Shown here: piece by piece, positions 4,364-40,163 of the stretch
Numbering within the stretch: position 1 is the stretch's first letter
How the letters are laid out: every line of letters starts with the position of its first letter
IMG/VR virus record: IMGVR_UViG_3300045988_030546
Length of the DNA stretch: 40,163 nt
Source: a virus
Direction: 5' to 3' (one strand)
Notes under the pieces: model-generated
The model's input: only the letters and a program-made list of their open reading frames with translations
What the model was told of the DNA's origin: nothing
Databases searched by the model: none
Made by a program: the position numbers and the translations under genes

Positions 4364-4365
4364 CA

Positions 4366-4809: not shown

Positions 4810-5006
4810 TGGCAAAGTATTTCAGAATTGCAGAGATTGATGCTGCTACGTTTGAGCGCATGACTGGTTACGAGCTTGATTGCCTGCAAGTGGCAATGCT
4901 TGCGGATGATGGAAACGTGTATGTTGCTGTCGATGAAGATGGGCAAGATTACATTGATGTCGACATTGAAATGTTTAACGCGGACGGGGGTGCTGACCAT
5001 GTATGA
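4809..5006 (+). CDS. Hypothetical acidic protein
   Basis: Start is coupled to the preceding stop (TAATG). Confidence 0.5.
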   Translation: MAKYFRIAEIDAATFERMTGYELDCLQVAMLADDGNVYVAVDEDGQDYIDVDIEMFNADGGADHV

Positions 5007-5340
5007 ATCGCCAATTAAAGTATTCCAAGGCAATCTTGAAATGCAGTTTGAGGGTGAAATTCTCAAAGCCGTGCAGCGGGCTGACATTACCGTTGATAGG
5101 GATGAACTAATCCGAGCGCTCCGCTATGACCGTGAGCAGTACCAGAAAGGTTTCGACGATGCAAGGAAGGGTGCTGTGCCGGTGGTGCGGTGCGAGGACT
5201 GCAAGCATTTGTGCGTGTGGAACCGAAAAGATATGTACGCATTTTGTCCCAAAACAAACATCGTGTTTTTGCCGTTTGATAAGGACACAAGGACATTCTT
5301 TTGCAGCCTTGGCGAGAGAAAGGACGGCGGGGATGGCTAA
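4999..5340 (+). CDS. Hypothetical protein
   Basis: Internal ATG (MYESPIKV...) overlaps the previous gene by 8 nt. Has a Cys cluster RCEDCKH...FCP. Confidence 0.55.
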   Translation: MYESPIKVFQGNLEMQFEGEILKAVQRADITVDRDELIRALRYDREQYQKGFDDARKGAVPVVRCEDCKHLCVWNRKDMYAFCPKTNIVFLPFDKDTRTFFCSLGERKDGGDG

Positions 5341-8680: not shown

Positions 8681-9947
8681 TATTTTCTTGTCAGAAAAGA
8701 TCGGCCCTGCGTTTTATAGCATTGCACATGACATTTTTAGGCATGGGCATACGCACTACGATTTTAGCGGCGGGCGTGGCTCATTGAAATCCTCCACAGT
8801 ATCAATTCTTGTACCGCTTTTGCTGGTTGGCAATCCGGGAACGCATGCGCTTGTGTTGCGCAAGGTAGCAAATACAATCCGCGATAGCGTTTATGCCCAG
8901 TACATTTGGGCAATCGGCGAGCTGGGCATGGCGGCGTATTGGGAAGCGAAAGTATCCCCGATGGAGCTGATCTATAAGCCGACAGGCCAGAAGATTATGT
9001 TTCGCGGCGCTGATGACCCGATGAAGATCAAATCTATCAAAGTCCCGTTTGGCTATATCGCCGTGACGCACTTCGAGGAAAAAGACCAGTTTGCCGGACG
9101 TGCGGAAATCCGAACTATTTTACAGTCCACCATGCGCGGTGGCTCGATGTTCTGGAATTTTGAAAGCTATAACCCACCTATCTCGCGTGACAACTGGGCG
9201 AACAAGGACAGCTTGGAGGAACGGGCTGATCGCTTGTGTCATAAGTCAACATATCTGCAGGCACCGCCGGAGTGGCTGGGAGAACAGTTTCTTGCAGAAG
9301 CGGAACACCTGAAAGAAACGGACGAGCGTGCATATCAGCACGAATATCTCGGAATTCCGGTCGGCACCGGCGGAAATGTGTTTGAAAATTTGGAGTTGCG
9401 GGAAATCACTGACGAGGAAATTTCGCATTTCGACCGCATTTATAACGGCGTTGACTGGGGATATTTCCCCGATCCGTGGGCGTTCAACCGTTGCCATTAC
9501 GACGCCGCGAGACGAACACTATACATTTTTGCGGAAATGACCGCAAACAAAAAGAGGAACAAAGAAACGGCTGATATGCTGATTGATTATGGGCTGACCC
9601 GCGATGACCTCATCACCGCAGACGGTGCAGAGCCGAAGAGCGTCGCGGACTATCAAAAGTTCGGCTTGCGCTGCATTAGCGCAAGAAAAGGGCCGGGAAG
9701 TATTGACCGCTCTATGCAGTGGTTGCAAGGCTTGTCGAGCATCGTAATTGACAAGGTAAAATGCCCTAAAACGGCAGAAGAATTTATTTCCTATGAGTAC
9801 GAGCGGAACCGCGAGGGAGAGATCCTCAGCGGTTATCCTGATGCAAACAACCACCATATTGATGCGTGCCGATATGCGACAGAATCGATATGGAAAGCGC
9901 CCGGCCAAAAGGGCAAGAGCGATTATACCCCCATTTGGAACAGATAG
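8673..9947 (+). CDS. terL: Terminase large subunit (PBSX/Terminase_3-like)
   Basis: Has a Walker-A-like ...FSGGRGSLKSS..., is 424 aa long, and sits between terS and portal. Confidence 0.92.
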   Translation: MSDIFLSEKIGPAFYSIAHDIFRHGHTHYDFSGGRGSLKSSTVSILVPLLLVGNPGTHALVLRKVANTIRDSVYAQYIWAIGELGMAAYWEAKVSPMELIYKPTGQKIMFRGADDPMKIKSIKVPFGYIAVTHFEEKDQFAGRAEIRTILQSTMRGGSMFWNFESYNPPISRDNWANKDSLEERADRLCHKSTYLQAPPEWLGEQFLAEAEHLKETDERAYQHEYLGIPVGTGGNVFENLELREITDEEISHFDRIYNGVDWGYFPDPWAFNRCHYDAARRTLYIFAEMTANKKRNKETADMLIDYGLTRDDLITADGAEPKSVADYQKFGLRCISARKGPGSIDRSMQWLQGLSSIVIDKVKCPKTAEEFISYEYERNREGEILSGYPDANNHHIDACRYATESIWKAPGQKGKSDYTPIWNR

Positions 9948-9982: not shown

Positions 9983-11338
9983 GTGGCGGTGGGCGAGGAC
10001 GAAAAGGCGCGGATGGAGTTTATCCGCAGCGCAATCAACGAGCACCGCGAATCCCACGCATATAAGACGGCGGCGGATGCTGAGGAATATTACAACGGCC
10101 TGAATCCGACCATTAATCGCTATGAAAAGATCATCTACGATATGCAGGGCCGTTCCCACACGGATATGTGGACGGCAAACCATAAGCTGGCCAGCCGCTT
10201 CTTTGGTCTGGCGGTGGATCAGGAAGTTTCCTATCTTCTGGGTAACGGCGTAACCTTTGCGGAGAAGGAAACGCCGAACAAGCTATGCCCGGACTTCGAC
10301 CAGGAAGTCATGGATGCGGCGCGTGAAGCGAAAATCGCAGGCGTGTCCTTCGGTTTCTGGGATCTGACGCATTTGCGCGTGTTCTCCCTGCTTGAGTTCG
10401 TCCCCCTCTATGATGAAGAGGACGGTGCAATGAAAGCCGGTATCCGGTTCTGGCAGGTGGCACAGGATAAGCCTCTGAGAGCGACGCTATATGAGACCGA
10501 CGGCTTTACCGAGTATTTCCAGCCCAGCGGCGAGGATATGTCCGTCATGCAGCCGAAGCGCAGTTATAAGCTGATCGAGCGCAAGGCGGAGGTCGGCGAA
10601 ACCGAAATCTATGACGGCGGGAATTATCCGAGTTTCCCCATCGTGCCGCTGAAAAACAACAAGCGGTGTCTCTCCGAGATCGTCGGCAAGCGCAACACCA
10701 TTGACGCACTCGACCTTGCATCCTCTAACATGGTCAACAACGTGGACGAGGGCAATCTGATCTATTGGGTGCTTTCTAATTGCAACGGCATGGACGATCT
10801 GGACGATGCAAAGTTTATTGAACGGCTGAAAACCACCCATGTCGCCCACGCGAATGGCGATGATGGTGCAAAGGTGGAAAGCAAGACCATCGAGGCTCCC
10901 TATGAGGGCACCAGCAGCACCATTGATATGCTCAAAAAGAAGCTGTACGAGGATTTCCAGTGCTTTGACGCTGCGGCGGTATCCGCAGGGAACCAGACGG
11001 CGACCGCAATCAAGGCCAGCTATGTGCCTCTGGATTTGAAAACGGACAAGTTTGAATCCGAGGTAACGCGGTTTATTGTTGAGATTCTGCGTTTGGCAGG
11101 CATTGAGGATCAGCCGAGCTATACGCGCAATCAAATTATCAACAAGAGCGAGGAAACGCAGAACATTCTGCTGGGAGCGGCGTATTACGATGACGAATAC
11201 ATCACAAAGAAGCTGCTGACCATCAACGGCGACATTGACCAGTACGAGGATATGGCAAAGCGGAAGGCAGCAGAAGAACTTGACCGGAGCTTTGAAGATC
11301 CGGACGCGCCGGGGGTGAGCGGCGATGGCGACCAGTGA
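9983..11338 (+). CDS. Portal protein (SPP1 Gp6-like)
   Basis: 451 aa with an acidic C-terminus, located right after terL and before MuF. GTG start; an alternative ATG lies at 10013. Confidence 0.9.
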   Translation: MAVGEDEKARMEFIRSAINEHRESHAYKTAADAEEYYNGLNPTINRYEKIIYDMQGRSHTDMWTANHKLASRFFGLAVDQEVSYLLGNGVTFAEKETPNKLCPDFDQEVMDAAREAKIAGVSFGFWDLTHLRVFSLLEFVPLYDEEDGAMKAGIRFWQVAQDKPLRATLYETDGFTEYFQPSGEDMSVMQPKRSYKLIERKAEVGETEIYDGGNYPSFPIVPLKNNKRCLSEIVGKRNTIDALDLASSNMVNNVDEGNLIYWVLSNCNGMDDLDDAKFIERLKTTHVAHANGDDGAKVESKTIEAPYEGTSSTIDMLKKKLYEDFQCFDAAAVSAGNQTATAIKASYVPLDLKTDKFESEVTRFIVEILRLAGIEDQPSYTRNQIINKSEETQNILLGAAYYDDEYITKKLLTINGDIDQYEDMAKRKAAEELDRSFEDPDAPGVSGDGDQ

Positions 11339-12845
11339 CCTCGGCCACAAGCTGACCGACAAGGAGCTTGCAAAGCTGGAGCGGCGTATTGAGAAACTAT
11401 ACCGTGAGGTCGGGAAGGAATTGCAAGAGACCATTGATGCATATTTCAAGCAATTCAAAAAGCGCGACGAGGAAATGAAAGCGCTGATCGGCACCGTGCA
11501 GAACGGTAAGGAGTGGACGGAGGCCGACTATAAGCAATGGCGGTTGAACCAAATCGGGCGCGGGGAACGCTATCAGGCCATGCGTGACAAGGTGGCGCAC
11601 CGTGTGACCGATGCAAACGCCGTGGCGGTGTCTTACACCAATGACGCAACGCCCGGTATCTACTCTCTGAACCGCAATTATGCGGCGTACACCATCGAGA
11701 GCGTGGCCGGGGATGTCGGCTTTGACTTGTGGGACGAGCAGACGGTGAAACGCCTGATCGTGGAGCAGCCGGGGCTGATGCCGTACTATCCAAAGGATAG
11801 AGCACTGAAACGCGGGATCGATCTCGCATACGGCAAGAAGCAAATTACGGCCAGTGTCACCAGCTCCATCTTGCAGGGATTGAGCATCATGCACATGGCG
11901 GATAATCTGCAAAAGCGGATCACCACCATGAGCCGCGATTCCGCCATTCGCACGGCCAGAACCGCCGTGACCGGCGCACAGAACGCCGGACGCATGGACA
12001 GCTACACAGCAGCGGAGAAGATGGGCGTCAAGCTCAAGAAACAGTGGCTTGCGACGCTGGACAATCGCACGCGACACGCTCATGCCATGCTGGACGGTCA
12101 AACGGTGGACATTGATAAGCCGTTCAAAGTCGATGGCTATGACATCATGTTCCCCGGTGATACTTCTGCACCCGGCTACCTCGTGTATAACTGCCGCTGC
12201 ACGATGGTTGCGGACATTGGTAGGGTTAATTCCACGGGCCAAAGACGCGCCAGAAACCCGGTTACAGGCGAAAACGAGATCGTTTCAGATATGACCTATT
12301 CAGAGTGGGCGGCACAGAAAGAAGCGGAAAATGCTACAGCGTGGGGCATCTTTATCAAAAAAGGCCGAAATCTATCGGCAGACACGAAGCAATGGAAAGG
12401 ATACAAGGCGGTTCTGAACAAAAAAGTTCCGAATACCGTTGAAGATTTCCAGAATTTGAAGTATAATGAACCTGAAAAGTGGGCGCAATTAAAAACCACA
12501 AAGCGGCAGACTGTTGTTGTTAAAAATGCGGAGTGCGTAACAACACCCAAAAAATACACAGGCTATTTCCTGAAAAGTGGAGCTAAACACGCAGACCAAT
12601 TCTTTGATGTTGGATATACGTCAGACAATCCGCTCCAATTGCGCTATGATATGGCAAGGCAGTTTAACATGGAAAAGGCTGTGGATTTTAAAGAATTAGG
12701 CGGCGGAGCCGTGCGTTTTAATATTTACATGGAACTTGGGGTGACAAAACAACGAACGTTTTGCACTGGCTGGATAAAGGATGCGCCCGAAAGCAAACCG
12801 CGTATCATAACTGCCTTTAGGAAAAACAAGGAGGATGCGGGATGA
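11325..12845 (+). CDS. Head morphogenesis protein, SPP1 gp7 / Mu F family, with a C-terminal extension of about 200 aa
   Basis: The MuF core ...TARTAVTGAQNAGRMDSY...WLATLDNRTRHAHAMLDGQ...YNCRCTM ends near residue 300. Residues of about 300-506 form an extra domain (...KKYTGYFLKSGAKHADQFFDVGYTSDN...RTFCTGWIKDAPESKPRIITAF). Confidence 0.88.
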   Translation: MATSDLGHKLTDKELAKLERRIEKLYREVGKELQETIDAYFKQFKKRDEEMKALIGTVQNGKEWTEADYKQWRLNQIGRGERYQAMRDKVAHRVTDANAVAVSYTNDATPGIYSLNRNYAAYTIESVAGDVGFDLWDEQTVKRLIVEQPGLMPYYPKDRALKRGIDLAYGKKQITASVTSSILQGLSIMHMADNLQKRITTMSRDSAIRTARTAVTGAQNAGRMDSYTAAEKMGVKLKKQWLATLDNRTRHAHAMLDGQTVDIDKPFKVDGYDIMFPGDTSAPGYLVYNCRCTMVADIGRVNSTGQRRARNPVTGENEIVSDMTYSEWAAQKEAENATAWGIFIKKGRNLSADTKQWKGYKAVLNKKVPNTVEDFQNLKYNEPEKWAQLKTTKRQTVVVKNAECVTTPKKYTGYFLKSGAKHADQFFDVGYTSDNPLQLRYDMARQFNMEKAVDFKELGGGAVRFNIYMELGVTKQRTFCTGWIKDAPESKPRIITAFRKNKEDAG

Positions 12846-25839: not shown

Positions 25840-26163
25840 ATGGACATGAAATTTGCTGACATCATCAACGAGGGCCGCAAGGCTGGCAAGACCGTGGAGC
25901 AGATCAACGCAGAGCTGAAGGCCGCCGGGGCCAATTTTCACCTGAATCCCGACGGCGGCGTGGCCGGTTGGACGGAACAGGAGATGAAGGAGGGCTTCAT
26001 CCCCACGGAGGAAGAACCTGCCGACGTGAAGCACATGTATGACTACTTCAACTATGACCCGGCCAATGCGGGCCAGACCATCCGGGTCACCGCACCGGAG
26101 GGCACCTATGACGTGACGTGGGACGAGGACGGACGGCCCGTAAAGGCAGTGCGCCGTGGTTGA
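25840..26163 (+). CDS. Hypothetical protein
   Basis: GAAAGGAGAA RBS with an internal ATG (MDMKFADII...). Confidence 0.5.
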   Translation: MDMKFADIINEGRKAGKTVEQINAELKAAGANFHLNPDGGVAGWTEQEMKEGFIPTEEEPADVKHMYDYFNYDPANAGQTIRVTAPEGTYDVTWDEDGRPVKAVRRG

Positions 26164-26836
26164 TATCTTTGACTGCGCCAGGGCGCAGATCTACCACAAC
26201 ACCGGCAAGCTGACCCCGGCCCAGATCAAGGCCAAGACCGGGTGTACCCACATCATCAACGGGTATCTTTTCAACAGCAAGTTTCAGCCGGTGGGCTGGA
26301 CGGTGATCGACGGCAAGGTCATCAGCCGGGACAAATACCAGGACTGGGGCGTGTCCATCAGCTCTGACGGCGTACCGAAGATGCTAACGGGCCGGGGAGT
26401 ATCCTTCCTTTCCGGCGTCCCGATCCTCAAGGGCGGCTCCAAGCTCTACCGGGGCCTGACCGCCGACGTGGCCCGGCCTGCTGCCCGGACGGCGGTGGGC
26501 TGGATGCCCAACGGCAAGGTATGCCTGTGGTGCGACAAGACCAGCCTGACCCGTGAGCAGCTCCAGAACAAGCTGCTGGGGCTTGGCGTGGTGGATGCCC
26601 TCATGCTGGACGGCGGCGGCTCCACGCAGGGCATTTTCCCCAAGGAGAAAGTGACCAGCACCCGGAAGGTGCCTACGCTGCTGCTGTTTTGGGAGCGGTC
26701 GGCCAAGGTGGAAGATCAAGCCCTTGTATGGGGCGAGGCTCACGGCCTGCTGACGGACGCCAACGCTGGAGAGACTGTGACCCGCGCCGACATGGTCCGG
26801 GCGCTGTATCAGATCTGGGGGGATAACCATGGTTGA
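26156..26836 (+). CDS. Phosphodiester glycosidase (NAGPA/DUF2233) family protein, putative cell-wall hydrolase
   Basis: ...ARTAVGWMPNGKV... and ...VDALMLDGGGSTQ... motifs are present. The gene lies in the lysis cassette. GTG start. Confidence 0.65.
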   Translation: MVDIFDCARAQIYHNTGKLTPAQIKAKTGCTHIINGYLFNSKFQPVGWTVIDGKVISRDKYQDWGVSISSDGVPKMLTGRGVSFLSGVPILKGGSKLYRGLTADVARPAARTAVGWMPNGKVCLWCDKTSLTREQLQNKLLGLGVVDALMLDGGGSTQGIFPKEKVTSTRKVPTLLLFWERSAKVEDQALVWGEAHGLLTDANAGETVTRADMVRALYQIWGDNHG

Positions 26837-27230
26837 GATCCACGCTTACAGCAAAGCCGCCTCCGGGGGCAAGCAGCTCTCCGCCCATTTTAAAGTGCGG
26901 GAGTTTGCCTGCCGGGACGGATCGGACGCCGTTTTGGTGGCCCCCCGGCTGGTGATGGTGCTGGAGAGCATCCGCACCCACTTTGGGGCGGCTGTGACTA
27001 TTAACAGCGGTTACCGCACGCCGCAATATAATGCCAAGGTGGGCGGGGTGGCCCACAGCCAGCATTGCTACGGCACGGCAGCGGACATCACGGTCAAGGG
27101 GCAGACGCCGGAAGCCGTGGCGACCTACGTGCGGCAGCTCATGCCGGATTGGGGCGGCGTGGGCGTGTACAGTCAGAAGGGCTTCACGCACATCGACGTG
27201 CGGGAGGCCAAGGCCGACTGGACGGGCTAA
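26829..27230 (+). CDS. Peptidase M15A-type endolysin (L-Ala-D-Glu / D,D-peptidase fold)
   Basis: ...HFKVREFACRDG... and ...INSGYRTPQYNAKVGGVAHSQHCYGTAADI... supply the zinc-binding H/D/H pattern of M15. Confidence 0.85.
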   Translation: MVEIHAYSKAASGGKQLSAHFKVREFACRDGSDAVLVAPRLVMVLESIRTHFGAAVTINSGYRTPQYNAKVGGVAHSQHCYGTAADITVKGQTPEAVATYVRQLMPDWGGVGVYSQKGFTHIDVREAKADWTG

Positions 27231-27272: not shown

Positions 27273-27539
27273 ATGGCCGCGCTCTGCAAGTCTGGAAAAC
27301 CCATGGAGAAAACAAACCGAGAGATCCGGGCGCTGTTGTCATCGATGGCCCCGGCCCGGGCGGCGCAGGCCATTCGGCTGGTAGGCCTCCCGCCTGACGA
27401 GGAGACGGCGGTGCTGGCGGTGGACGTCCACGGCCAGAGCTGCCTACAGGCGGCGGCGCTGCTCCACGTCAGCGTGGACGGGTTGGCCAAGATCCGGCGG
27501 CGTGCCTATGCAAAAATCGCGGATGATATGCAAGGATAG
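27273..27539 (+). CDS. Sigma-70 region-4-like HTH protein
   Basis: ...DEETAVLAVDVHGQSCLQAAALLHVSVDGLAKIRRRAYAKI has the region-4 layout. The start is uncertain (27273 or 27303). Confidence 0.5.
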   Translation: MAALCKSGKPMEKTNREIRALLSSMAPARAAQAIRLVGLPPDEETAVLAVDVHGQSCLQAAALLHVSVDGLAKIRRRAYAKIADDMQG

Positions 27540-27542
27540 AGA

Positions 27543-27580
27543 AAAGCCGTGTCCGATTCGGACACGGCTTTCTTATTTTT
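27543..27580. terminator. Bidirectional rho-independent terminator between convergent operons
   Basis: A perfect 13-bp stem, AAAGCCGTGTCCG-ATT-CGGACACGGCTTT, is followed by a T-rich tract (CTTATTTTT) on the + strand and by TTTTCTCT on the - strand. Confidence 0.85.
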
Positions 27581-28064
27581 CTTCCCACGCCACCAGCGTC
27601 CATCCCTTATACGTGGACACCGTGCATGGCTTCCCGTTTGCTCTGCGGAAATTTCCCTCCATGGAGCGTTTGATCTGGCGGAAACCGGAGGAAATGGCAG
27701 CGGCGCTGGCCTCCGTCGGCTCCATATCAAAGTCGGAGGTGTGCTGTCTGGCCCAGTCCGTCAGATTGGTCACAACAACCGGCTCACCGTCCGGCGTGCG
27801 CAGGTGCCAGATTTTGGCGTTGCGGTTCTGCGGTCCACGCTGGCCCTCCGGCAATGCAAGTGCGGCCTTCGTGCCGTGGGCCAGATTCCCGGTTCTTTCC
27901 GCTGCCGCAGCGGCGTTCCGCTTGGCGGCGGCGCTCCACTTGTTGTGCCGTCCCTTGTGCTGTTGGCTGCGCCATGCGGCGGAGCAGGTTGGGGAGCAGG
28001 TGCGCTTGTTGTTGGACGGCGGCGTATCAAATTCCACGCCGCAGATCACACACTTCTGGATCAT
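27573..28064 (-). CDS. Zinc-ribbon protein with C-terminal domain of unknown function
   Basis: The N-terminus is MIQKCVICGVEF...CSPTC. The C-terminus ...KIWHLRTPDGEPVVVTNLTDWARQH...YKGWTL is reminiscent of DNA-binding modules of phage homing-endonuclease-like proteins (weak). Confidence 0.6.
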   Translation of the reverse strand: MIQKCVICGVEFDTPPSNNKRTCSPTCSAAWRSQQHKGRHNKWSAAAKRNAAAAAERTGNLAHGTKAALALPEGQRGPQNRNAKIWHLRTPDGEPVVVTNLTDWARQHTSDFDMEPTEASAAAISSGFRQIKRSMEGNFRRANGKPCTVSTYKGWTLVAWEEK

Positions 28065-28342
28065 ATCAGTCTGCGGATATCCACATGGAGCGCGTCGGCT
28101 ATAGCGATCAGGTTCTTAGCGGTGAGATTTCCGGCCTCCGCCTCGCCCAGCTCCACCCGCTGGATCTGGCGGATGTTGACGCCGGACGCCTCCGCAAGCT
28201 GTGCCTGCGTCAGCCCCTCCGCCCGTCGGGACCACTCCAGTTTGCTGATGAAGCGATTGTGGCAATCCAGGCCATAGTTGGCCAGAGGGCAGATGGTGCA
28301 GTCACCATCTGCCCTCCGGCAGTCTGCGTATTTCTTGCGCAT
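28061..28342 (-). CDS. XRE-family HTH protein with N-terminal Cys cluster
   Basis: ...CRRADGDCTICPLANYGLDCH... is followed by ...RRAEGLTQAQLAEASGVNIRQIQRVELGE... Confidence 0.7.
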   Translation of the reverse strand: MRKKYADCRRADGDCTICPLANYGLDCHNRFISKLEWSRRAEGLTQAQLAEASGVNIRQIQRVELGEAEAGNLTAKNLIAIADALHVDIRRLI

Positions 28343-28354
28343 CGTGGGCCTCCT

Positions 28355-28552
28355 TTAGAGCTTGATTTCCGGTGTGTAGTAGAGCACTTCGTATTTTTGA
28401 TATTGGGCGCCGACAGGCTTTCTGACAATGGCGGTTGTTTCTTCCCCGGTAACCCGCTTTATAAGCGCGTAGCCGTAAAAATAGCCGCCTTCCACAAATG
28501 TTTTTCCGGGGGCCTGTTCCAGCCTTTGAATCAATTCGTTTTTCTCCATCAT
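28355..28552 (-). CDS. Hypothetical protein (65 aa)
   Basis: AGGGAGGAAAGA RBS on the minus strand. Confidence 0.5.
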   Translation of the reverse strand: MMEKNELIQRLEQAPGKTFVEGGYFYGYALIKRVTGEETTAIVRKPVGAQYQKYEVLYYTPEIKL

Positions 28553-28563
28553 TCTTTCCTCCC

Positions 28564-28833
28564 TTATTTCAGATAACGGTTCGTCTGAGAAACCACGGCC
28601 ATGCCGACCTGATCCGGGGTGCTGTTGAAGTTTACGAAGCGGAGGACGTCGATCAGCTTGCTGGCGTACTCTACGGAGTTGATGCGGTTGATCTGGAAGT
28701 CAATCCCCTTGTTCCACATCTCGATGTTTGCCTTGCCGGGGTCGCTGGGGTTCTCTCTCATCCACTCCAGTGCGGTGATGGCTTTGGCCTTGAGATCTTC
28801 GGCCCACGCGATCTGCTTCTCAGTACCCTTCAT
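28564..28833 (-). CDS. Hypothetical protein (89 aa)
   Basis: AAGGAGGAAAAAAATT precedes the ATG on the minus strand. First gene of the leftward module. Confidence 0.55.
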   Translation of the reverse strand: MKGTEKQIAWAEDLKAKAITALEWMRENPSDPGKANIEMWNKGIDFQINRINSVEYASKLIDVLRFVNFNSTPDQVGMAVVSQTNRYLK

Positions 28834-28874
28834 AATTTTTTTCCTCCTTGGGTTGCCCCTCTCTTTATGCTTTT

Positions 28875-28903
28875 AATATACGCTAATATTAGCGTAAAGT
28901 CAA
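28875..28903 (-). promoter_or_regulatory. Sigma-70 promoter (TTGACT-17-TATATT, leftward) with an 18-bp perfect palindrome in its spacer
   Basis: On the minus strand, -35 TTGACT is at 28898-28903 and -10 TATATT at 28875-28880. The palindrome TACGCTAAT|ATTAGCGTA is at 28879-28896. Confidence 0.65.
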
Positions 28904-28935
28904 GAGAAAAGAGCAAAAAAGTCAAAATATTTTTA

Positions 28936-28979
28936 GGGCAGTTTGAGGGCAGAATACAGGCAGTTTCCGGGCAGTTTAG
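28936..28979. repeat. Four direct GGCAG-core repeats with exact 11-bp phasing
   Basis: GGCAG starts at 28937, 28948, 28959 and 28970 (GGGCAGTTTGA GGGCAGAATAC AGGCAGTTTCC GGGCAGTTTAG). The array lies just upstream of a weak -10 (TATCAT, 28996-29001). Confidence 0.85.
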
Positions 28980-29026
28980 CTGTCCGGATTTTTTGTATCA
29001 TGAGGGTAAGAAAAAGGAGGCGCGCA

Positions 29027-29149
29027 ATGTATGACCGACTGCTTGCCATCGGCTACACGGAGCAGATGGCAATGGACATTTTAAAGCTGTTCCCGGACCC
29101 GGAGGAGCTGCAAACTTACGTGTATTTTGCGGAGCTGTTCCATGTTTGA
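29027..29149 (+). CDS. Hypothetical small protein (40 aa)
   Basis: AAAAAGGAGG RBS. Translates to MYDRLLAIGYTEQMAMDILKLFPDPEELQTYVYFAELFHV. Confidence 0.4.
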   Translation: MYDRLLAIGYTEQMAMDILKLFPDPEELQTYVYFAELFHV

Positions 29150-29522
29150 GTACTTCAACCAAAATCCCTGCGGCAAAAATGTGGGGGACTGCACCGTGCG
29201 GGCTATTTCCAAGGCAACCGGCAAGGATTGGGGCGAGACGTATCTGCGATTGTGCATCCAAGGGTATCTTGACGGAGATATGCCATCCGCCAACGCCTGC
29301 TGGGGCCGGTATCTCCGCAGCATCGGGTACAAGCGGTACATCGTGCCGGACACCTGCCCAGATTGCTACACAGTGGGCCAATTTGCGGAGCAGCACTCGG
29401 CAGGGACGTATATTTTGGCGCTGTCCGGCCACGTAGTCTGCGTACAGGACGGGGTAATTTGGGACAGCTGGGACAGCAGCAATGAGACAATCTTATATTA
29501 CTGGGTCAAGGAGGATGATTGA
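29142..29522 (+). CDS. Hypothetical protein with possible Cys-His(-Asp) papain-like arrangement
   Basis: ...NPCGKNVGDCTVRAISKA... and ...LALSGHVVCVQDGVIWDSWD.... The fold call is inference only. Confidence 0.55.
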   Translation: MFEYFNQNPCGKNVGDCTVRAISKATGKDWGETYLRLCIQGYLDGDMPSANACWGRYLRSIGYKRYIVPDTCPDCYTVGQFAEQHSAGTYILALSGHVVCVQDGVIWDSWDSSNETILYYWVKEDD

Positions 29523-29523
29523 C

Positions 29524-29964
29524 ATGGCATACACACCTTACGGCTGGCAAAATCCCTATTACGCACAGCCTATGCCGGATAACCTGGCACAACTCCGCCA
29601 ACAGCAGATGCCTCCAATGATGGCACCGCAGCCCCCGCAGAATCCGATGGCGCAGAGCGGTGTCCAGTGGGTCAGTGGGGAACAGGAGGCCCGAAACTGG
29701 ATGATTGCGCCAAACGCAGCCGTGGCGCTGTGGGACAGTACGGCTCCCACCGTCTATCTCAAGCAGGCGGACGCCAGCGGCAAACCGTCCCTTAAAATTT
29801 ATGACCTCGTAGAGCGCTCTCAGACGCCGCCTGCCTCACCGCAGGCTAAGGCCGTGGATTTTGTCACGCGGGAGGAGTTTGACCGTCTGGCGGCGATTGT
29901 GGGCGAAATTCGGGGCAAAGAAAAGCCAGCGAAGAAAGTAAAGGAGGCTGACGCTGATGGCTAA
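29524..29964 (+). CDS. Hypothetical protein (Pro/Gln-rich N-terminus, Lys-rich C-terminus)
   Basis: AAGGAGGA RBS. Translates to MAYTPYGWQNPYYAQPMPDNLAQLRQQQMPPMMAPQPPQNPMAQ... Confidence 0.6.
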   Translation: MAYTPYGWQNPYYAQPMPDNLAQLRQQQMPPMMAPQPPQNPMAQSGVQWVSGEQEARNWMIAPNAAVALWDSTAPTVYLKQADASGKPSLKIYDLVERSQTPPASPQAKAVDFVTREEFDRLAAIVGEIRGKEKPAKKVKEADADG

Positions 29965-30175
29965 TCCTTTTTTTAAGGCCATGGGCGGCGGTCAGATGCC
30001 AGGGCCGATGGGCCAATTCCAGCGGCTCATGCAGCAATTTAACCAGTTCCGCGCCACATTTCAGGGAGATCCAAAAGCGGAGGTGGAAAAGCTGCTGCAA
30101 TCCGGCAAAATGAGCCAGCAGCAACTGAACCAGCTGCAGGCAATGGCAAAGCAATTTGAGAGCTTTTTGCGGTAA
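29957..30175 (+). CDS. Hypothetical Gln-rich small protein
   Basis: Coupled start. Followed by a near-perfect 13-bp palindrome or hairpin (30174-30200). Confidence 0.55.
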   Translation: MANPFFKAMGGGQMPGPMGQFQRLMQQFNQFRATFQGDPKAEVEKLLQSGKMSQQQLNQLQAMAKQFESFLR

Positions 30176-30226
30176 TCAAAATCGTGGCCACGATTTGATT
30201 GATAAAATTTTGAAAGGAGAGATATT

Positions 30227-30949
30227 ATGTCTCTATCTGACGGTATGCCGACGATGACCATGCCTGTGGCTCCCGCCAACACCTCCGGCAGCGGAAACGG
30301 CTTTGGCTGGGGCGGTGACGGTGCATGGTGGATCATTATCCTGTTTTTGTTTGTTTTTTGCGGCTGGGGCGGCAACGGCTGGGGCAACAACGGCGGCAAT
30401 GGCGGCGGCGTGGTCGACGGCTATGTGCTGACCTCTGACTTTGCCAATGTCGAGCGCAAGATCGACAGTGTAAATCAGGGTCTTTGCGACGGATTTTACC
30501 AGCAGGCGCAGCTTGTCAACGGCACCAACATGGCGATGGCAAACGGCTTTGCACAGGCCGAGCTTTCCCGCAGCAACCAGCAGGCGGCTCTCATGCAGCA
30601 GTTGACTGCCATGCAGATGCAGGCCCAGCAGTGCTGCTGCGACCAGCGGGCCGACACGGCACAGCTCCGGTATGACATGGCTACGCAGGGCTGCGACACC
30701 CGCAACACCATCCAGACCGCAACGCGGGACATCATCGACAACGCCAACAGCAACAGCCGCGCAATCCTCGACTTTTTGACCCAGAGCAAGCTGCAGGATC
30801 TCCAGAGCGAGAACCAGGGCTTGAAGCTGGCCGCATCTCAGGCGGCGCAGAACAGCTATCTGGTGTCTCAGCTCCGGCCCTCTCCCATTCCGGCCTACAC
30901 GGTGCAGAACCCCTATTGCTGCAACCAGTTTGCCGGTTGCGGCTGCTGA
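30227..30949 (+). CDS. Hypothetical membrane protein: Gly/Trp-rich N-terminus with TM, Gln-rich middle, Cys-rich end
   Basis: GAAAGGAGAG RBS. Motifs seen: ...GNGFGWGGDGAWWIIILFLFVFCGWGGNGWGNNGGNGGG..., an internal QQCCCDQ, and a C-terminal ...YCCNQFAGCGC. Confidence 0.6.
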   Translation: MSLSDGMPTMTMPVAPANTSGSGNGFGWGGDGAWWIIILFLFVFCGWGGNGWGNNGGNGGGVVDGYVLTSDFANVERKIDSVNQGLCDGFYQQAQLVNGTNMAMANGFAQAELSRSNQQAALMQQLTAMQMQAQQCCCDQRADTAQLRYDMATQGCDTRNTIQTATRDIIDNANSNSRAILDFLTQSKLQDLQSENQGLKLAASQAAQNSYLVSQLRPSPIPAYTVQNPYCCNQFAGCGC

Positions 30950-31064
30950 CAACTGCATAGCATAGCTTTTTCCCCATGCGGGGAAAATGGTCGGCCCCGT
31001 GCCGATACTACGACAACGCGGCGGGGCAATAGCTCCGCCGCTGTTACATGAAAGGACAAAAATT

Positions 31065-31277
31065 ATGAAAACAGTCGACGAACTCAAGCAGGAATTTGTG
31101 GACCACATCGCAACTCTGAACAAAACCAGCATGACCCTTGTTGAGCTTGGCTATTATGCGGAGCTCTTGCGCAAGGCAGATGATCTCTTTAGGCCGAGCT
31201 ACACGGACATGATGGCCGGCATCGGCCTGGCTCCGTTTGCCATGGCTGCGAGAAAGGAGGGGGCAAAAAATGGCTGA
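31065..31277 (+). CDS. Hypothetical small protein (70 aa)
   Basis: GAAAGGACAAAAATT precedes the internal ATG (MKTVDELKQEF...). Confidence 0.5.
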   Translation: MKTVDELKQEFVDHIATLNKTSMTLVELGYYAELLRKADDLFRPSYTDMMAGIGLAPFAMAARKEGAKNG

Positions 31278-31692
31278 GTATACCAACGCCAACATTGTCG
31301 AGGTCGCAGCGGGTCAAAACGTGCCCCTGACGGAAAACGTAGTCAACAGTAAGCCTTGCATTGTCCATCGTGAGGGCGCGGGTATCGTGACCTTGCGGGG
31401 TCTGACCAACCAGTGCAAGGCCCGTTTCCGCGTGGCTTTTGGCGGCAATATTGCCATTCCCACCGGCGGCACGGTGGAGGCCATCACCGCCGCTTTGGCT
31501 ATCAACGGCGAGCCGCTGACCAGCGCCACGGCTACCATAACCCCGGCGGCGGTGGAGAACTATTTTAACATTTTTGTCAGCGCCATTGTGGAGGTGCCTC
31601 GGGGCTGCTGCCTGACGGTGGCCATGGAAAATACCAGCACACAGGCGATTAACTTTGCCAACTCCAACCTGACTGTTGACCGTGTGTCGTGA
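31270..31692 (+). CDS. Hypothetical beta-rich protein (BclA-C-terminal / C1q-TNF-like jelly-roll suspected)
   Basis: GAAAGGAGGGGG RBS. Alternating beta-strand pattern ...IVTLRGL...ARFRVAFGGNIAIPTGG...ALAINGEPL...NIFVSAIVEVPRGCCLTVAMEN...SNLTVDRV. The fold call is inference only. Confidence 0.55.
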   Translation: MAEYTNANIVEVAAGQNVPLTENVVNSKPCIVHREGAGIVTLRGLTNQCKARFRVAFGGNIAIPTGGTVEAITAALAINGEPLTSATATITPAAVENYFNIFVSAIVEVPRGCCLTVAMENTSTQAINFANSNLTVDRVS

Positions 31693-31705
31693 AAGGAGAC
31701 GGACT

Positions 31706-32089
31706 ATGCGAGATTATGATGATCTGCGGGAGATGCTGTGCAAGGAATTGGACGATCTCTACGATGAAACCGCTAAGAAGGGCGGCGTAAATGCTGCTGA
31801 TCTGGATGCCATCCGGGATATTACCAGTGCCATCAAAAACACCTACAAAATTGAGATGTTTGAGGGCGGCGACTACTCCCGTGATGGAGACTGGGGCGCC
31901 AGCATCCGGGGCACCTATGGCCGGGGGAATTCCTATGCGCGGCGCGGTACCCATTATGTGCGGGGCCACTACAGCCGTGGGAATAGTCAGGAGCGGATGC
32001 GCATGCAACTGGAGAACATGATGCGGGAGGCTGATACTGACGCTGCCCGCGATGCAATCCGCCGCTGCATGGATGCTCTTGGAGACTAA
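31706..32089 (+). CDS. Hypothetical protein with central Gly/Arg/Tyr/Ser-rich segment
   Basis: GAAAGGAGA RBS. Translates to MRDYDDLREMLCKELDDLYDE...GDYSRDGDWGASIRGTYGRGNSYARRGTHYVRGHYSRGNS... Confidence 0.58.
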   Translation: MRDYDDLREMLCKELDDLYDETAKKGGVNAADLDAIRDITSAIKNTYKIEMFEGGDYSRDGDWGASIRGTYGRGNSYARRGTHYVRGHYSRGNSQERMRMQLENMMREADTDAARDAIRRCMDALGD

Positions 32090-32104
32090 AGGGGGTATGC
32101 CCCC

Positions 32105-32410
32105 ATGGTCGACGAACGCGAACTGTCGTTATGGATTAGCCGGTTAGAAACAGAGGAGTCCAGCTGGGCAAACTATGAAAAGCTGGCGGCGCTGTATATT
32201 ATCCAAAACCAGAACCGGGAACCGATAAGGGAAAGCCGTATGGTTGAGGCGTATTCTGAGGCCCCCGCGCCTGACAGCGATTTCCTCCGGGCGGTGTCTA
32301 ACGTTGACCCAGCCCGTGCGTGGGATGTCATGGACGAGCTGATGGACAGCTTGAAAGTGGTCAACGAGCGGGTTTATAATAGCGTCATGCGGAAATTGGA
32401 AGCGTTTTAA
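32105..32410 (+). CDS. Hypothetical protein (101 aa)
   Basis: Last gene of the rightward cassette. Followed by a hairpin. Confidence 0.55.
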   Translation: MVDERELSLWISRLETEESSWANYEKLAALYIIQNQNREPIRESRMVEAYSEAPAPDSDFLRAVSNVDPARAWDVMDELMDSLKVVNERVYNSVMRKLEAF

Positions 32411-32414
32411 AAAC

Positions 32415-32440
32415 GTCCCCTGCCTGTATAGGCGGGGGAC
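32415..32440 (+). terminator. Hairpin terminator candidate after the accessory cassette
   Basis: GTCCCCTGCC-TGTATA-GGCGGGGGAC (10 bp, one G-U pair). The downstream T tract is weak. Confidence 0.45.
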
Positions 32441-32465
32441 AATTTCCCAAGTAAAAATAGCAATA

Positions 32466-32489
32466 TTGCAGATGAAATTACAGATGAAA
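32466..32489. repeat. Two tandem 12-bp copies of TT(G/A)CAGATGAAA (candidate integrase arm-type sites, left arm)
   Basis: TTGCAGATGAAA at 32466-32477 and TTACAGATGAAA at 32478-32489. Confidence 0.8.
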
Positions 32490-32531
32490 ATTGAAAAACA
32501 TTGAAATCACAATGATTATAAGCGCATAAAC

Positions 32532-32559
32532 AGGGGTTCGACTCCCCTCGGCTCCACCA
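32532..32559 (+). other. tRNA/tmRNA 3'-end fragment (T arm, acceptor 3' strand, ACCA): candidate attP core
   Basis: AGGGG-TTCGACT-CCCCT CGGCTCC A CCA. No matching 5' acceptor strand (GGAGCCG or GGGGCCG) occurs upstream, so only the 3' part of the gene is present. It lies about 160 bp from the integrase stop. Confidence 0.65.
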
Positions 32560-32718: not shown

Positions 32719-33738
32719 TTAAGAGAGATGCAGCAGCTCTTCAAATCGCTGGTCAATCTCTTCGGAATACTTTTTCTGTTCTTCCTGAATGGTGTGCTGG
32801 TAGACGGTTTTCAGCATATTGTCTGTGGCGTGACCCATGCGTTCCTGCGCGTATTTATTAGGGACGCCGACTGCCAGCATGACAGAGGCGTTCATGTGCC
32901 GCAGATCATGGAAGCGGAAATGGGGGGTCCCTGCCTTTTCACAGATACGTTCAAAGCCGTTATACATGGCGTGACCGGACAGGTTTACAATGTGTTCTTT
33001 GGAATGATCCTGTGCCTGAATCAGCGCGGCGAGATATGGGGGCAGATGCAGGGTGCGGGTTCCACTGAACGTCTTCGTCCCTTTTTCGACAGGGCCAGCT
33101 TCGCCCTGGACGATAGCCCGTTTGACGGAAATATATTCGCCGTCGATATCTTCCCATTTCAGGCCCCGTATTTCAGAAGCCCGCAAGCCCAGCCATACGG
33201 CCAGCAAGATCGGCAGCTCATATTTCGTCTCTTTGGCTGCTTTGAAAATGGCGGATAGTTCTGCCTCGGACGGGATCGCTATCTTCGGCTTCACCTTTTG
33301 CGGAAGCGTTGTGCGGAGCGTCATATCCGGGCGGTAGGACGCAAGGACGGCGCTCAACAGGCCGTGGGCATTGGAAACGGTCTTTGGCTTTTTCCCCTGC
33401 TTGACCAGCGCATTTACCCACCGCTGCACCTGCTCCTGGGTCAGGTTTGCCAACGGCATATTTGCAATCGGTTCCAACAGGTTCTTTTGGATCCGGCGAT
33501 ACCCGGCGACTGTGGCAGGTGAGAGGACGGCGCTTTTGCTGTCTATATATCGGTCAAATGCTTCCGTCACGGTCAGGGCTATATTATGCTGGGCGCTTTT
33601 GATGCCGGATTTCAGAGCAGCCGCTTCCCGCTCCGCTTCCTTCTTCGTGGGCATGGTGATGGAAATCCGCTGCCCATTTACCATGACGTTTACATACCAA
33701 CTTCCGGATGGAAGTTTTGTTGCTTTTGGTATCTTCAT
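32719..33738 (-). CDS. int: Tyrosine-type site-specific integrase
   Basis: 339 aa. An N-terminal SAM-like/arm-binding region is followed by ...LAVWLGLRASEIRGLKWEDID..., ...HDLRHMNASVML..., ...ERMGHATDNMLKTVYQH (R..H-x-x-R..H..Y catalytic layout). Confidence 0.93.
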   Translation of the reverse strand: MKIPKATKLPSGSWYVNVMVNGQRISITMPTKKEAEREAAALKSGIKSAQHNIALTVTEAFDRYIDSKSAVLSPATVAGYRRIQKNLLEPIANMPLANLTQEQVQRWVNALVKQGKKPKTVSNAHGLLSAVLASYRPDMTLRTTLPQKVKPKIAIPSEAELSAIFKAAKETKYELPILLAVWLGLRASEIRGLKWEDIDGEYISVKRAIVQGEAGPVEKGTKTFSGTRTLHLPPYLAALIQAQDHSKEHIVNLSGHAMYNGFERICEKAGTPHFRFHDLRHMNASVMLAVGVPNKYAQERMGHATDNMLKTVYQHTIQEEQKKYSEEIDQRFEELLHLS

Positions 33739-33739
33739 A

Positions 33740-34174
33740 TTATTCCCTCCAAAAACCGATATTTAGGGCGTGCATATCCACAAATACGCACCAGCACAAC
33801 AGCAGGCTAATTGCTATGCCCATAACCAGAATCACGCAGTTCCGAATCCGCAGACCCTTTTCCATGACGTGAATGGTATAGTTTTGCACGTCAATCATCT
33901 CCCGCTTGTTGGACAGGCGCTTTTCCAACCCGTCCTTTTCCGCCTGCAAGGTTTCTTCCGTGGCGGTACAGTGATCGCCAATACCAAAAAATGCGTCCAA
34001 AGACACCCCCAGTGCCGCACAGATACCAGCTGTGGTATAAAGGGCCGGGGATTTGGACGCATGGGCGAAGAAATTATTAACGGTGGAGAGGGGGATGTTT
34101 GAAGCATCGGCAATGTCCTGGGCCGTCATACCCAGCGCGTTCTTTTTTTCTCTGCATAATTCTTGAATCGTCAA
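33740..34174 (-). CDS. Membrane-anchored XRE-family HTH protein
   Basis: TTG start with GGGGGGA upstream. The HTH ...LGMTAQDIADASNIPLSTVNNFF... is followed by a coiled coil and a C-terminal TM segment (ILVMGIAISLLLCWCVFV). Its stop lies 1 nt from the int start. Confidence 0.7.
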   Translation of the reverse strand: MTIQELCREKKNALGMTAQDIADASNIPLSTVNNFFAHASKSPALYTTAGICAALGVSLDAFFGIGDHCTATEETLQAEKDGLEKRLSNKREMIDVQNYTIHVMEKGLRIRNCVILVMGIAISLLLCWCVFVDMHALNIGFWRE

Positions 34175-39783: not shown

Positions 39784-40163
39784 ACAGAATCATTGTGATG
39801 GGCCGGATAACCCGTGACCCTGAATTGCGCCGCACTAACAGCGGCACGGCGGTGGCATCCTTCACCGTGGCGGTTGATCGGGACTTCAAGTCCCAGTCCG
39901 GCGAGAAGGAAACGGATTTCATTGACGTGGTGGTATGGCGCAACACCGCCGAATTTGTGAGCAAGTACTTCTCTAAGGACCGCATGGCCGTGGTGGAAGG
40001 CCGCTTGCAGCTGCGTGACTGGACGGACAAGAACGGCAATAAACGCCGCAGCGCCGAGATCGTGGCCGACAGCGTGTACTTTGGCGATTCCAAGCGGGAC
40101 GGCGGGGACACGGCGCAGAGCGAACCGCAGGGAGGTTTCAGCGAGATCGAGGACGATGGGAAC
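39777..40163 (+). CDS. ssb: Single-stranded DNA-binding protein (N-terminal 129 codons; runs off the window end, completed at 1..67)
   Basis: GAAAGGGAG RBS. MLNRIIVMGRITRDPELRRTNSGTAVASFTVAVDRDF...DFIDVVVWRNTAEFVSKYFSKDRMAVVEGRLQLRDWTDKNG is a canonical OB-fold SSB. Confidence 0.92.
   Translation, partial: MLNRIIVMGRITRDPELRRTNSGTAVASFTVAVDRDFKSQSGEKETDFIDVVVWRNTAEFVSKYFSKDRMAVVEGRLQLRDWTDKNGNKRRSAEIVADSVYFGDSKRDGGDTAQSEPQGGFSEIEDDGN
40109..40163. repeat. 55-bp terminal overlap identical to 1..55 (circular-assembly signature)
   Basis: cacggcgcagagcgaaccgcagggaggtttcagcgagatcgaggacgatgggaac occurs at both ends. Confidence 0.97.

Follow-up and report, generated by a model that had tools for sequence, protein, structure and literature searches.

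A nine-gene cassette of gut phages with a TNF/C1q-like jelly roll: a possible anchor-stalk-head module

Introduction

Parts of the Bacillus exosporium appear to need no signal peptides, to be put together in the cytoplasm of the mother cell and to become exposed when it lyses. Here we describe a cassette of nine rightward genes, g1 to g9, in the virus genome IMGVR_UViG_3300045988_030546 of the IMG/VR collection (40,163 nucleotides; the whole stretch analysed is called the window), for which the exosporium would be the nearest solved analogue. In the ExsF/BxpB-BclA/F-Anchor system of the exosporium a stand-alone TNF-like trimer is combined with a Pro-rich docking peptide and CC motifs (PMC12357932). 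Clefts of the ExsF/BxpB trimer bind the Pro-rich leader of F-Anchor, and the similar leader of BclA is probably bound likewise (PMC12357932).

The phage cassette is a co-conserved unit that travels together, with its own promoter, in thousands of gut phages. It encodes a stand-alone protein, g7, predicted to fold as a TNF/C1q-like jelly roll, next to a Cys-rich helical hallmark protein, g5. By analogy with the exosporium we read the cassette, tentatively, as a separately regulated anchor-stalk-head assembly that would be made in the lytic cycle and exposed at lysis: a possible reading, well short of a probable one.

Results

One block in many genome slots

All nine open reading frames (ORFs) lie on the plus strand exactly where the original prediction had placed them, and its sequence quotations are correct (Table 1). 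Each is preceded, 6-10 nt upstream, by a GGAG-type Shine-Dalgarno sequence, weakest for g6 and g9. The comparison set consists of 80 viral contigs retrieved through g7 (85-96% identical). Genes g2, g3, g4, g5, g8 and g9 stand in the same order in 75-80 of the 80 contigs, between flanks that are mostly different: the lysin, integrase and leftward operon of the window occur in only 1-9 of them. Taken singly, g9 is co-conserved in 79 of the 80 loci and g6 is found in only 11, while g1 was detected by tblastn in 34, with divergent forms visible upstream of g2 in more. Identity differs gene by gene inside a locus (in L004, 54% for g3 and 99% for g8), which indicates recombination within the retained block.

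The same gene order is found at 30-57% protein identity in unrelated phages, where it occupies other genome slots. It comes after the lysin in Butyrivibrio phage Ceridwen, after the lysin and before the integrase in Dulem virus 33, after holin and lysin in bajarodcaudo virus 5, after the receptor-binding protein in Dulem virus 36, and directly after the integrase in Dulem virus 39 and locus L117. In Dulem virus 35 and bajarodcaudo virus 2 it lies in the head module, in the interval from portal/minor head protein to scaffold/capsid; in loci L111-113, between the head-tail connector and a tail-fibre gene associated with a diversity-generating retroelement; in L115, between the tail genes and a PolIII-alpha replication module; and in L116, at a prophage end adjoining the host dnaJ. 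The crAss-like phage cr116_1 carries it upstream of the capsid gene, four genes from holin and carboxypeptidase, and Bacteroides phage C3_41T2LP beside replication and recombination genes; g3, g5 and g9 are present in Clostridium perfringens phage CPD1. Because the same order recurs in unrelated phages in differing slots, the block behaves as an autonomous cassette inserting at junctions between modules. This bears out the earlier view that the nine genes form one unit rather than a set of unrelated morons.

The hosts of close relatives are uncultured Oscillospiraceae, Clostridium sp. CAG:413 and Lawsonibacter, and one cassette copy lies in a 120-kb bacterial contig. Some phage-sized cassette contigs of 18-47 kb (L102, L107, L108/L109) were binned into metagenome-assembled genomes of Prevotella, Alistipes and Alloprevotella; since all other hosts are Clostridia, these bins probably reflect mis-binning and not the true host range. 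Carriers are not all temperate. Ceridwen is plaque-forming, has no integrase and was judged virulent by its authors (PMC7372960). The cassette also occurs in the PolIII-alpha-encoding phage of L115, and g5 also in crAss-like phages. A spore-specific role was rejected, the block being present in phages of non-sporulating hosts.

g7, a stand-alone jelly roll

The original prediction had likened g7 to the jelly rolls of BclA and C1q/TNF, and the likeness stands for the fold and not for the sequence family. From a 59-sequence alignment AlphaFold2 gave an all-beta model (pLDDT 94.7, pTM 0.86), a ten-strand jelly roll of the TNF/C1q type. Foldseek matched it to the PDB with probability 1.0 and TM scores of 0.67-0.75 (9h38, 7r1m, 8d02, 1wck, 1rj7 and 4qq2). 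The top matches are the C-domain of F-BclA (9h38), ExsFA (7r1m), an ExsF-peptide complex (9h3d), BxpB (8d02) and BclA (1wck), followed by EDA, 4-1BBL, C1q and phage fibre knobs, all at a sequence identity of 7-16%. No Pfam (BclA-C, C1q) or NCBIfam match was obtained at E <= 1, and no match to PDB sequences.

In BFVD, the best matches of g7 are stand-alone proteins of ~135 aa from uncultured sipho-, podo- and myoviruses. We counted 7318 homologous clusters, or 574 at 50% identity; the best 150 of these 574 are all short (72-196 aa) and none is fused to a larger protein. With these relatives free of any shaft, g7 would have to attach via a partner.

The slot beside g5 varies between lineages: it holds g7 in the window, a Cys-rich beta protein in L111 and a Listeria-Bacteroides-repeat protein in the archaeal virus vir215. 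Since different proteins fill it, the arrangement fits a conserved stalk with exchangeable beta-rich or adhesin-like heads. The g7 profile gave no significant hhalign match to the proteins of the 140-aa slot in distant versions, so we do not claim that these are TNF-like.

g5, the hallmark protein

At its N-terminus g5 has an acidic tail. A Gly/Trp-flanked hydrophobic helix (predicted at ~aa 33-46) comes next, then a linker rich in Gly and two long predicted helices (101-138 and 148-216), and a Pro/Cys tail of the form RPxPIPAY...NPY...GCGC ends the protein. Its single hydrophobic segment, internal CCC (136-138) and terminal cysteines had been noted earlier and are confirmed as features of the family: among 106 diverse homologues, the invariant residues include W47, G85, D88, C136-C138, S204, Q205, P220 and P229, and P222, C238 and C240 are nearly invariant. 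The homologues carry 8-17 cysteines each. Their N-tail of ~30 aa is acidic, with a mean of 3 D/E and 0.4 K/R; the Gly-rich stretch that follows the hydrophobic helix is almost uncharged and the helix flanks have no positive charges. AlphaFold2, run on the 106-sequence alignment, placed helices at 34-44, 101-138 and 148-216, in a model whose confidence is low (pLDDT 50). No similarity of g5 to PDB or Pfam sequences was detected.

Full-length homologues with the same landmarks occur in at least 18 crAss-like phage records, where depositors named them 'spike protein/glycoprotein' or 'outer capsid protein/viral fiber'. Two tailed viruses assigned to Methanomassiliicoccales have them as well, and so does C3_41T2LP, a cultured phage of Bacteroides uniformis. 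The C. perfringens phages phiCP13O, phiCP39-O and phiCP26F, which share the terminase type and for which virion proteomes are published, are not among the g5 matches listed.

Two further identities were considered for g5 and rejected. A holin was set aside on account of the single helix with uncharged flanks, and the precursor of a ribosomally synthesised and post-translationally modified peptide on account of the length of 240 aa and of a cassette in which there is no modifying enzyme.

Where the products would reside

Secretion or transmembrane segments had been expected among the nine products. One hydrophobic segment is indeed there, in g5, the only product that has one; no signal peptide was found in any of the nine. 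The other eight products, having neither signal peptide nor hydrophobic segment, should stay cytoplasmic until lysis.

A disulfide-linked surface structure had also been proposed. The composition does resemble that of Cys-locked surface assemblies such as the exosporium; the envelope-specific part of the idea is hard to reconcile with g5 kin in phages of monoderm Clostridia and diderm Bacteroides and in viruses of Methanomassiliicoccales archaea.

A sigma-like gene and a phased promoter

In 70 of the 80 related loci the cassette is preceded, usually at 200-600 bp, by sig88, a helix-turn-helix (HTH) protein resembling region 4 of sigma-70. It matches Pfam Sigma70_r4_2 with E = 2.3e-4 and 21.2 bits, below the gathering cut-off of 25.7. 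The HMM of the sig88 family also finds CPD1_027, upstream of the block in C. perfringens phage CPD1, and a 77-aa protein stands in the place of sig88 in L111, where it matches the C-terminal part of sigma-factor PHROGs; both analogues match sigma-factor PHROGs at 1e-5 to 1e-3.

The separate control region claimed for the cassette is well supported. Four GGCAGWWT repeats are spaced exactly 11 bp apart, and the last lies inside an inverted repeat with a T-run; the -10-like element TTTTGTATCAT follows as the sole match in the 40-kb window, in which GGCAGWWT itself has 12 matches against 5.9 expected. This layout is kept in diverse loci, where 3-4 xCAxTTT repeats at 11 bp, a hairpin and then TTTTTTGTACCATAA are found upstream of g1/g2. 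From its sequence and place we presume that sig88 is dedicated to regulating the cassette. Its gene closes the late/lysis operon, and the protein would, we infer, activate the cassette promoter. The hairpin said to close the cassette does fold (Table 1); no T-run follows it, and the terminator scan did not call it.

As a separate observation, an XhlA-like 'hemolysin', a tail-anchored coiled-coil protein, is encoded in L111 directly upstream of the sigma-like gene and the cassette. It sits in the middle of the structural operon, far from the annotated holin.

A recurrent peptidase-like partner

The Cys-His-Asp arrangement that had been seen in g2 is conserved: C17, H97 and D108, together with D16, R20, A21 and W110, are invariant in 7 divergent homologues (31-57% identity) from gut phages, Bacillus phage Tsamsa, Geobacillus phage GBK2 and a Lak megaphage. 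Such a pattern would suit a papain-like Cys-His-Asp peptidase. No Pfam, NCBIfam or PDB profile or sequence search matched g2 to a known peptidase family, and hhalign against the Peptidase_C39_2 lysin of a related phage gave a probability of 0.35%.

Versions of the block without g2 carry a small protein of 105-154 aa with the motif HExxH...E, usually encoded right after the g8-like gene (Table 1). It is also present in the crAss-like cr116_1 (VOG3488, directly upstream of the g5 homologue) and in C3_41T2LP, whose depositors named it a PolyVal metallopeptidase. A multiple alignment of the small HExxH proteins shows the HExxH...E that they have in common; BLAST between the L111 protein and the PolyVal protein of C3_41T2LP was not significant. 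Because the versions without g2 have an HExxH...E protein, a peptidase-like gene seems to be a recurrent component drawn from two unrelated families, and HExxH for g2 looks like a non-orthologous replacement in Firmicute and Bacteroides phages. A putative peptidase, of the g2 or the HExxH type, is the only enzyme-like product of the cassette.

Low-complexity and variable members

The low-complexity compositions first described for g3, g4 and g8 are as stated. In g3 a Tyr/Pro/Gln-rich low-complexity N-terminus precedes a conserved small beta domain and a C-terminal helix; in g8 a helical N-domain and a helical C-terminus enclose a disordered core rich in Arg, Gly, Tyr and Ser. Both proteins are largely disordered. 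The g3 family adjoins g5 in nearly all versions from Firmicute phages, and the slot between them, the position of g4, is always filled by a gene of 66-100 aa. The g8 homologues of other versions have 146-231 aa and follow the beta-protein gene. A gene of 70-76 aa occupies the g6 position in L086, L116 and L117, and g9 has homologues in Dulem virus 33, Ceridwen and CPD1.

PHROGs places g2, g3, g4, g5 and g7 in families of 'unknown function'. Pfam, NCBIfam and PADLOC scans of all nine products returned sub-threshold noise only, with no PADLOC match (anti-phage defence) for any of them at E <= 1. Sequence and profile searches of the PDB with g2, g3, g5, g7 and a beta protein of L111 gave no match, and a literature search (a PHROG identifier; BclA/TNF-like with phage) returned nothing relevant.

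The neighbourhood of the cassette

The window is a complete, circularly assembled phage genome of ~40.1 kb, with a 55-bp exact direct repeat at its ends. The cassette lies, as proposed at the outset, between lysis genes and attP: an M15 endolysin gene is found upstream and an attP with a tmRNA fragment downstream. No holin was identified by family scans of the lysis region (26156-27230). The attP core has a tmRNA 3' end adjoining the ORF of a tyrosine integrase, and for this reason the phage probably integrates into ssrA; ARAGORN detected no complete gene.

Between sig88 and the cassette promoter runs a leftward operon, whose products are a Cys-rich protein of 163 aa with a weak match to an HNH-endonuclease PHROG, a 93-aa XRE-type HTH protein, and proteins of 65 and 89 aa. 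Most relatives lack this operon; in the window and a few others it seems to have been inserted between the gene for sig88 and the promoter. On the other side, 52 of the 80 related loci keep, downstream of cassette and integrase, the gene of a 144-aa HTH protein that has a hydrophobic helix at its C-terminus; the protein may be a membrane-tethered repressor.

Three unrelated phages (Table 1) carry homing endonuclease genes of the HNH or I-HmuI type within the cassette or immediately next to it. Reverse transcriptase genes are found a few kb from the cassette in L112, a Firmicute phage, and in L093, the archaeal virus vir215; both adjoin tail or tail-fibre genes and probably belong to diversity-generating retroelements.

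Table 1 Coordinates of the cassette, of its neighbourhood in the window and of associated genes in related loci.
Feature	Sequence	Coordinates	Strand	Properties
g1	window	29027-29149	+	40 aa, acidic, helical; AGGAGG site
g2	window	29142-29522	+	126 aa, putative papain-like cysteine peptidase; phrog_3754, E = 5e-35
g3	window	29524-29964	+	146 aa; phrog_21718 match
g4	window	29957-30175	+	72 aa, Met/Gln/Phe-rich, helical; phrog_22984 match
g5	window	30227-30949	+	240 aa, hallmark protein; phrog_16490 match
g6	window	31065-31277	+	70 aa, variable member
g7	window	31270-31692	+	140 aa, predicted stand-alone TNF/C1q-like (BclA-C/ExsFA-like) jelly roll
g8	window	31706-32089	+	127 aa; weak phrog_28802 match
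g9	window	32105-32410	+	101 aa, acidic, helical
Terminal hairpin, cassette end	window	32415-32440	+	11-bp stem, -23 kcal/mol, z = -4.65
sig88	window	27273-27539	+	88 aa, sigma-70 region-4-like HTH
Terminator hairpin after sig88	window	27543-27571	+	13-bp stem, then T-run; -24.7 kcal/mol, z = -6.5
Cassette control region	window	28834-29026	+	
GGCAGWWT repeats	window	28937, 28948, 28959, 28970		span 28937-28977
Inverted repeat with T-run	window	28966-28988		
-10-like element	window	28991-29001		
NAGPA-like phosphodiester glycosidase-domain protein gene	window	26156-26836		upstream of cassette
M15 endolysin (small M15 peptidase)	window	26829-27230		upstream of cassette
Leftward operon	window	27573-28833	-	four genes, including XRE-type HTH
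tmRNA 3' fragment in attP core (...GGGGTTCGACTCCCCTCGGCTCCACCA)	window	32435-32559		Rfam tmRNA, E = 2.8e-7
Tyrosine-type integrase ORF	window	32719-33738	-	
144-aa HTH protein gene	window	33740-34174	-	
Direct repeat	window	1-55 and 40109-40163		
Homing endonuclease gene	Dulem virus 33 (L001)	8918-9469		
Homing endonuclease gene	Ceridwen (L084)	10929-11723		
Homing endonuclease gene	C3_41T2LP (L118)	4270-4890		
HExxH...E gene	L086	9977-10294		
HExxH...E gene	L111	10072-10455		
HExxH...E gene	L115	11838-12158		
HExxH...E gene	L116	12202-12522		
HExxH...E gene	L117	12275-12592		
HExxH...E gene	L002	1886-2233		
HExxH...E gene	L118	7770-8234		
XhlA-like 'hemolysin' gene	L111	6473-6784		phrog_937
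Reverse transcriptase gene	L112	13011-14093		
Reverse transcriptase gene	L093 (vir215)	4152-5186		

Discussion

A possible anchor-stalk-head assembly

Taken together, the block looks like a purely structural, self-assembling set of cytoplasmic proteins made in lytic growth. In the anchor-stalk-head assembly that we tentatively propose, the sigma-like protein from the end of the late/lysis operon would turn on the cassette promoter. g5 would then oligomerise into a helical stalk, its Gly/Trp-flanked helix either placed in the cytoplasmic membrane (N-out, C-in by charge bias) or covered by g4, which is rich in Met and Gln. The invariant Pro/Cys-rich C-tail of g5 (RPxPIPAY/Cys) might dock in the clefts of a g7 trimer, as the Pro-rich exosporium leaders do in ExsF, and the CCC and CC motifs may lock the assembly through disulfide or metal bridges. 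One component would be matured by g2; g3, g8 and g9 could act as low-complexity adaptors, with g4 also assisting. Formed in the cytoplasm, the assembly would be exposed only at lysis, on virions or on membrane fragments, and its TNF-like head would serve as a binding or protective surface.

Several observations weigh against this proposal. The tail of g5 does not match the exosporium-leader model TIGR03720, nor does g7 match Pfam BclA-C, and the Sigma70_r4_2 score of sig88 stays under the Pfam cut-off. At the pLDDT of the g5 model, the stalk follows from secondary structure only, and a hydrophobic, membrane-type helix is unusual in a virion fibre. Homology across the 140-aa beta-protein slot of distant versions is without significant support from hhalign. 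Lastly, a separate promoter and regulator, and sites next to att or integrase in several phages, would equally suit a non-virion accessory role.

A broader reading, rather doubtful in our judgement, is that the cassette is a previously unrecognised, horizontally mobile multi-protein system that tailed viruses share across three host groups, the Clostridia, the Bacteroidota and the gut methanogenic archaea. Its parts would be a sigma-like switch, a processing peptidase, a CCC membrane/stalk protein, an exchangeable beta-rich head and low-complexity adaptors. Together they would make up a new kind of appendage or device at the membrane that follows exosporium-like principles, with a TNF trimer, a Pro-rich docking tail and Cys locks. 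Its role would not depend on which envelope type the host has and would be peculiar to anaerobic gut ecosystems; examples are adhesion or protection of virions after lysis, or a universal membrane-active device for entry or egress.

Other explanations

In the i-spanin Rz a hydrophobic helix at the N-terminus goes with long helices and conserved Cys; g5 likewise has conserved Cys, and such helices are predicted for it. The cassette could be an accessory of lysis or egress, with g5 as a membrane-active coiled coil, spanin-like or class-I-fusion-like, that disrupts or remodels the cytoplasmic membrane late in infection while its partners control or help it. Endolysin or holin genes stand directly before the block in the window and also in Dulem virus 33, Ceridwen and bajarodcaudo virus 5; the block is also near the holin and carboxypeptidase of cr116_1 and is preceded by the XhlA-like 'hemolysin' in L111, and the membrane is the only envelope layer common to Clostridia, Bacteroides and Methanomassiliicoccales. 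Elsewhere, however, the block is far from lysis genes, in the head module or after integrase or replication genes. No lipoprotein partner was found, monoderm hosts are without an outer membrane, and neither a TNF-like trimer nor low-complexity proteins have a role in known lysis systems. The block is, moreover, accessory and patchy in distribution, and we consider a lysis function unlikely.

Unlikely to the same degree is a set of packaged or injected proteins (pilot or ejection proteins), in which peptidase-matured helical and low-complexity products would be packed into the capsid and passed on along with the DNA, and the hydrophobic peptide of g5 would enter the membrane of the recipient. 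The slot from portal/minor head to scaffold/capsid in Dulem virus 35 and bajarodcaudo virus 2, the one from connector to tail fibre in L111-113 and that upstream of the capsid gene in cr116_1 all suit such a set, as do the recurrent processing peptidase (called PolyVal by depositors in one case), the disorder of g3 and g8, and a host range that spans domains. A rigid beta jelly-roll trimer such as g7 would be ill suited to a tail channel, though, and in the window and 70 of the 80 relatives the block stands outside the structural operon, under its own promoter.

The original prediction had leaned towards lysogenic conversion or host modification, that is, a prophage-expressed moron that alters the host surface, for instance by superinfection exclusion or a surface structure. 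The cassette's own promoter and terminal hairpin agree with this, as do the membrane-type helix of g5 and the places taken by the block: beside attP and integrase in the window, beside the integrase in L117 and Dulem virus 39, and at the prophage end by dnaJ in L116. The idea is nevertheless weakened, because eight of the nine products cannot leave a living cell (g7 and the others, lacking signal peptides, would not reach the surface of a live lysogen) and because phages judged virulent or lacking an integrase carry the block. The interval between lysis genes and attP is moreover only one of several slots, many of them away from att, and the regulator gene lies at the end of the late/lysis operon. 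Conversion of the lysogen thus seems quite improbable.

It is more improbable still, in our estimate, that the cassette encodes an intracellular organiser: a membrane-tethered scaffold or condensate on the cytoplasmic face that concentrates replication or assembly, with g5 as the anchor and g3, g4 and g8 as a multivalent matrix. All products are cytoplasmic or, by charge bias, face the cytoplasm; three are of low complexity (prion-like g3, Gln-rich g4 and RG/Tyr-rich g8), the peptidase is the sole enzyme, and in C3_41T2LP the block lies beside replication and recombination genes. Against this, the argument is one of composition alone, a TNF-like trimer is without precedent in such a role, and the block is accessory, not core.

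Unrelated morons adjacent by chance and without joint function, which the solitary g2 genes in early regions of Bacillus, Geobacillus and Lak phages and the variability of g1 and g6 might suggest, are excluded by synteny, the order being kept between unrelated flanks and in distant phages and the promoter architecture being common to the loci.

Significance

g5 and g7 each form more than 7000 clusters (90% identity) in public gut metagenomes, and neither has a name, a Pfam family or a solved relative; few unnamed proteins of gut viromes are as abundant as these families. Treating seven to ten 'hypothetical' genes as one regulated unit turns a large share of the gut-phage dark matter into a single testable system, for which cultured carriers exist: Butyrivibrio phage Ceridwen, C. 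perfringens phages CPD1 and 17DYC, and Bacteroides phage C3_41T2LP. Should the hallmark protein g5 act at membranes of archaea as well as of bacteria, this would indicate that phage entry, egress or gut persistence includes a host-independent step that has so far gone unrecognised.

Comparison with known systems

As a whole the system matches no described phage system, and for its products agreement with the families tested is limited to the fold of g7 and the catalytic residues of g2; what sets it apart is the combination of separate stalk and head genes, a membrane-type anchor, a dedicated sigma-like regulator and an associated peptidase, as we read them. Moron cassettes likewise have their own promoter and terminator and lie at module junctions. 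In contrast to morons of lysogenic conversion, the block is not confined to temperate phages, as Ceridwen, the PolIII-alpha phage and g5 in crAss-like phages illustrate.

Individual parts have closer counterparts. sig88 and its analogues recall the small phage regulators that are made up of a sigma-70 region 4 and nothing else. They give matches to Sigma70_r4_2, in the case of sig88 under the Pfam cut-off, or to sigma-factor PHROGs, and are encoded directly upstream of their presumed targets; unlike sigma factors, they have only 77-88 aa and no region 2, and the cassette promoter has 11-bp phased repeats in place of a -35 box. The invariant Cys...His...Asp of g2 follows the order of papain-like peptidases (for example C39-like ones), and the small HExxH...E protein that other versions have in lieu of g2 recalls the PolyVal-type metallopeptidases.

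With i-spanin Rz and the coiled coils of class-I fusion proteins, g5 shares an N-terminal hydrophobic segment, conserved Cys and, if the prediction is right, long helices, and its gene often lies beside lysis genes. Among the nine products, though, no o-spanin lipoprotein partner was found, and none but g5 has a hydrophobic or signal segment; the hosts differ as well, the relatives coming from Oscillospiraceae, Butyrivibrio and C. perfringens, with g5 kin in archaea-assigned viruses.

Viral TNF/C1q knobs, such as those of the phi812 central spike, the short tail fibre of cyanophage A-1(L) and the collagen/C1q proteins of giant viruses, have the same head fold as g7. A helical stalk with a trimeric head is a common design of viral attachment fibres, and we propose it here too. 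In the cassette, however, stalk and head would be separate genes (the best 150 g7 relatives are unfused), the stalk has a hydrophobic membrane-type helix, and the whole is autonomous, with its own regulator, outside the tail module.

The nearest known kin would be the exosporium anchoring system, with which we group the Cys-linked ENA appendages. The differences are plain: the identity of g7 to the ExsFA/BxpB-BclA proteins is only 10-14%; Pfam and NCBIfam scans of the nine products gave no TIGR03720 leader and no ExsY/CotY basal-layer match, and the cassette has neither collagen repeats nor an ExsY/CotY lattice protein; g5 is helical, with a membrane-type helix, and is not a collagen fibre; and the system is phage-encoded, also in phages of non-sporulating Butyrivibrio. 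Yet the best structural matches of g7 are F-BclA-C, ExsFA, BxpB and BclA-C, and like ExsFA/BxpB it is a stand-alone jelly roll of ~140 aa without a collagen or shaft region. It likewise has no signal peptide; assembly would take place in the cytoplasm, with exposure only after cell lysis. Its putative partner g5 carries an invariant Pro-rich RPxPIPAY and CC/CCC motifs, the Pro-rich character of the tail being judged by eye only. If the anchor-stalk-head proposal is true, phages re-use the architectural logic of spore surfaces.

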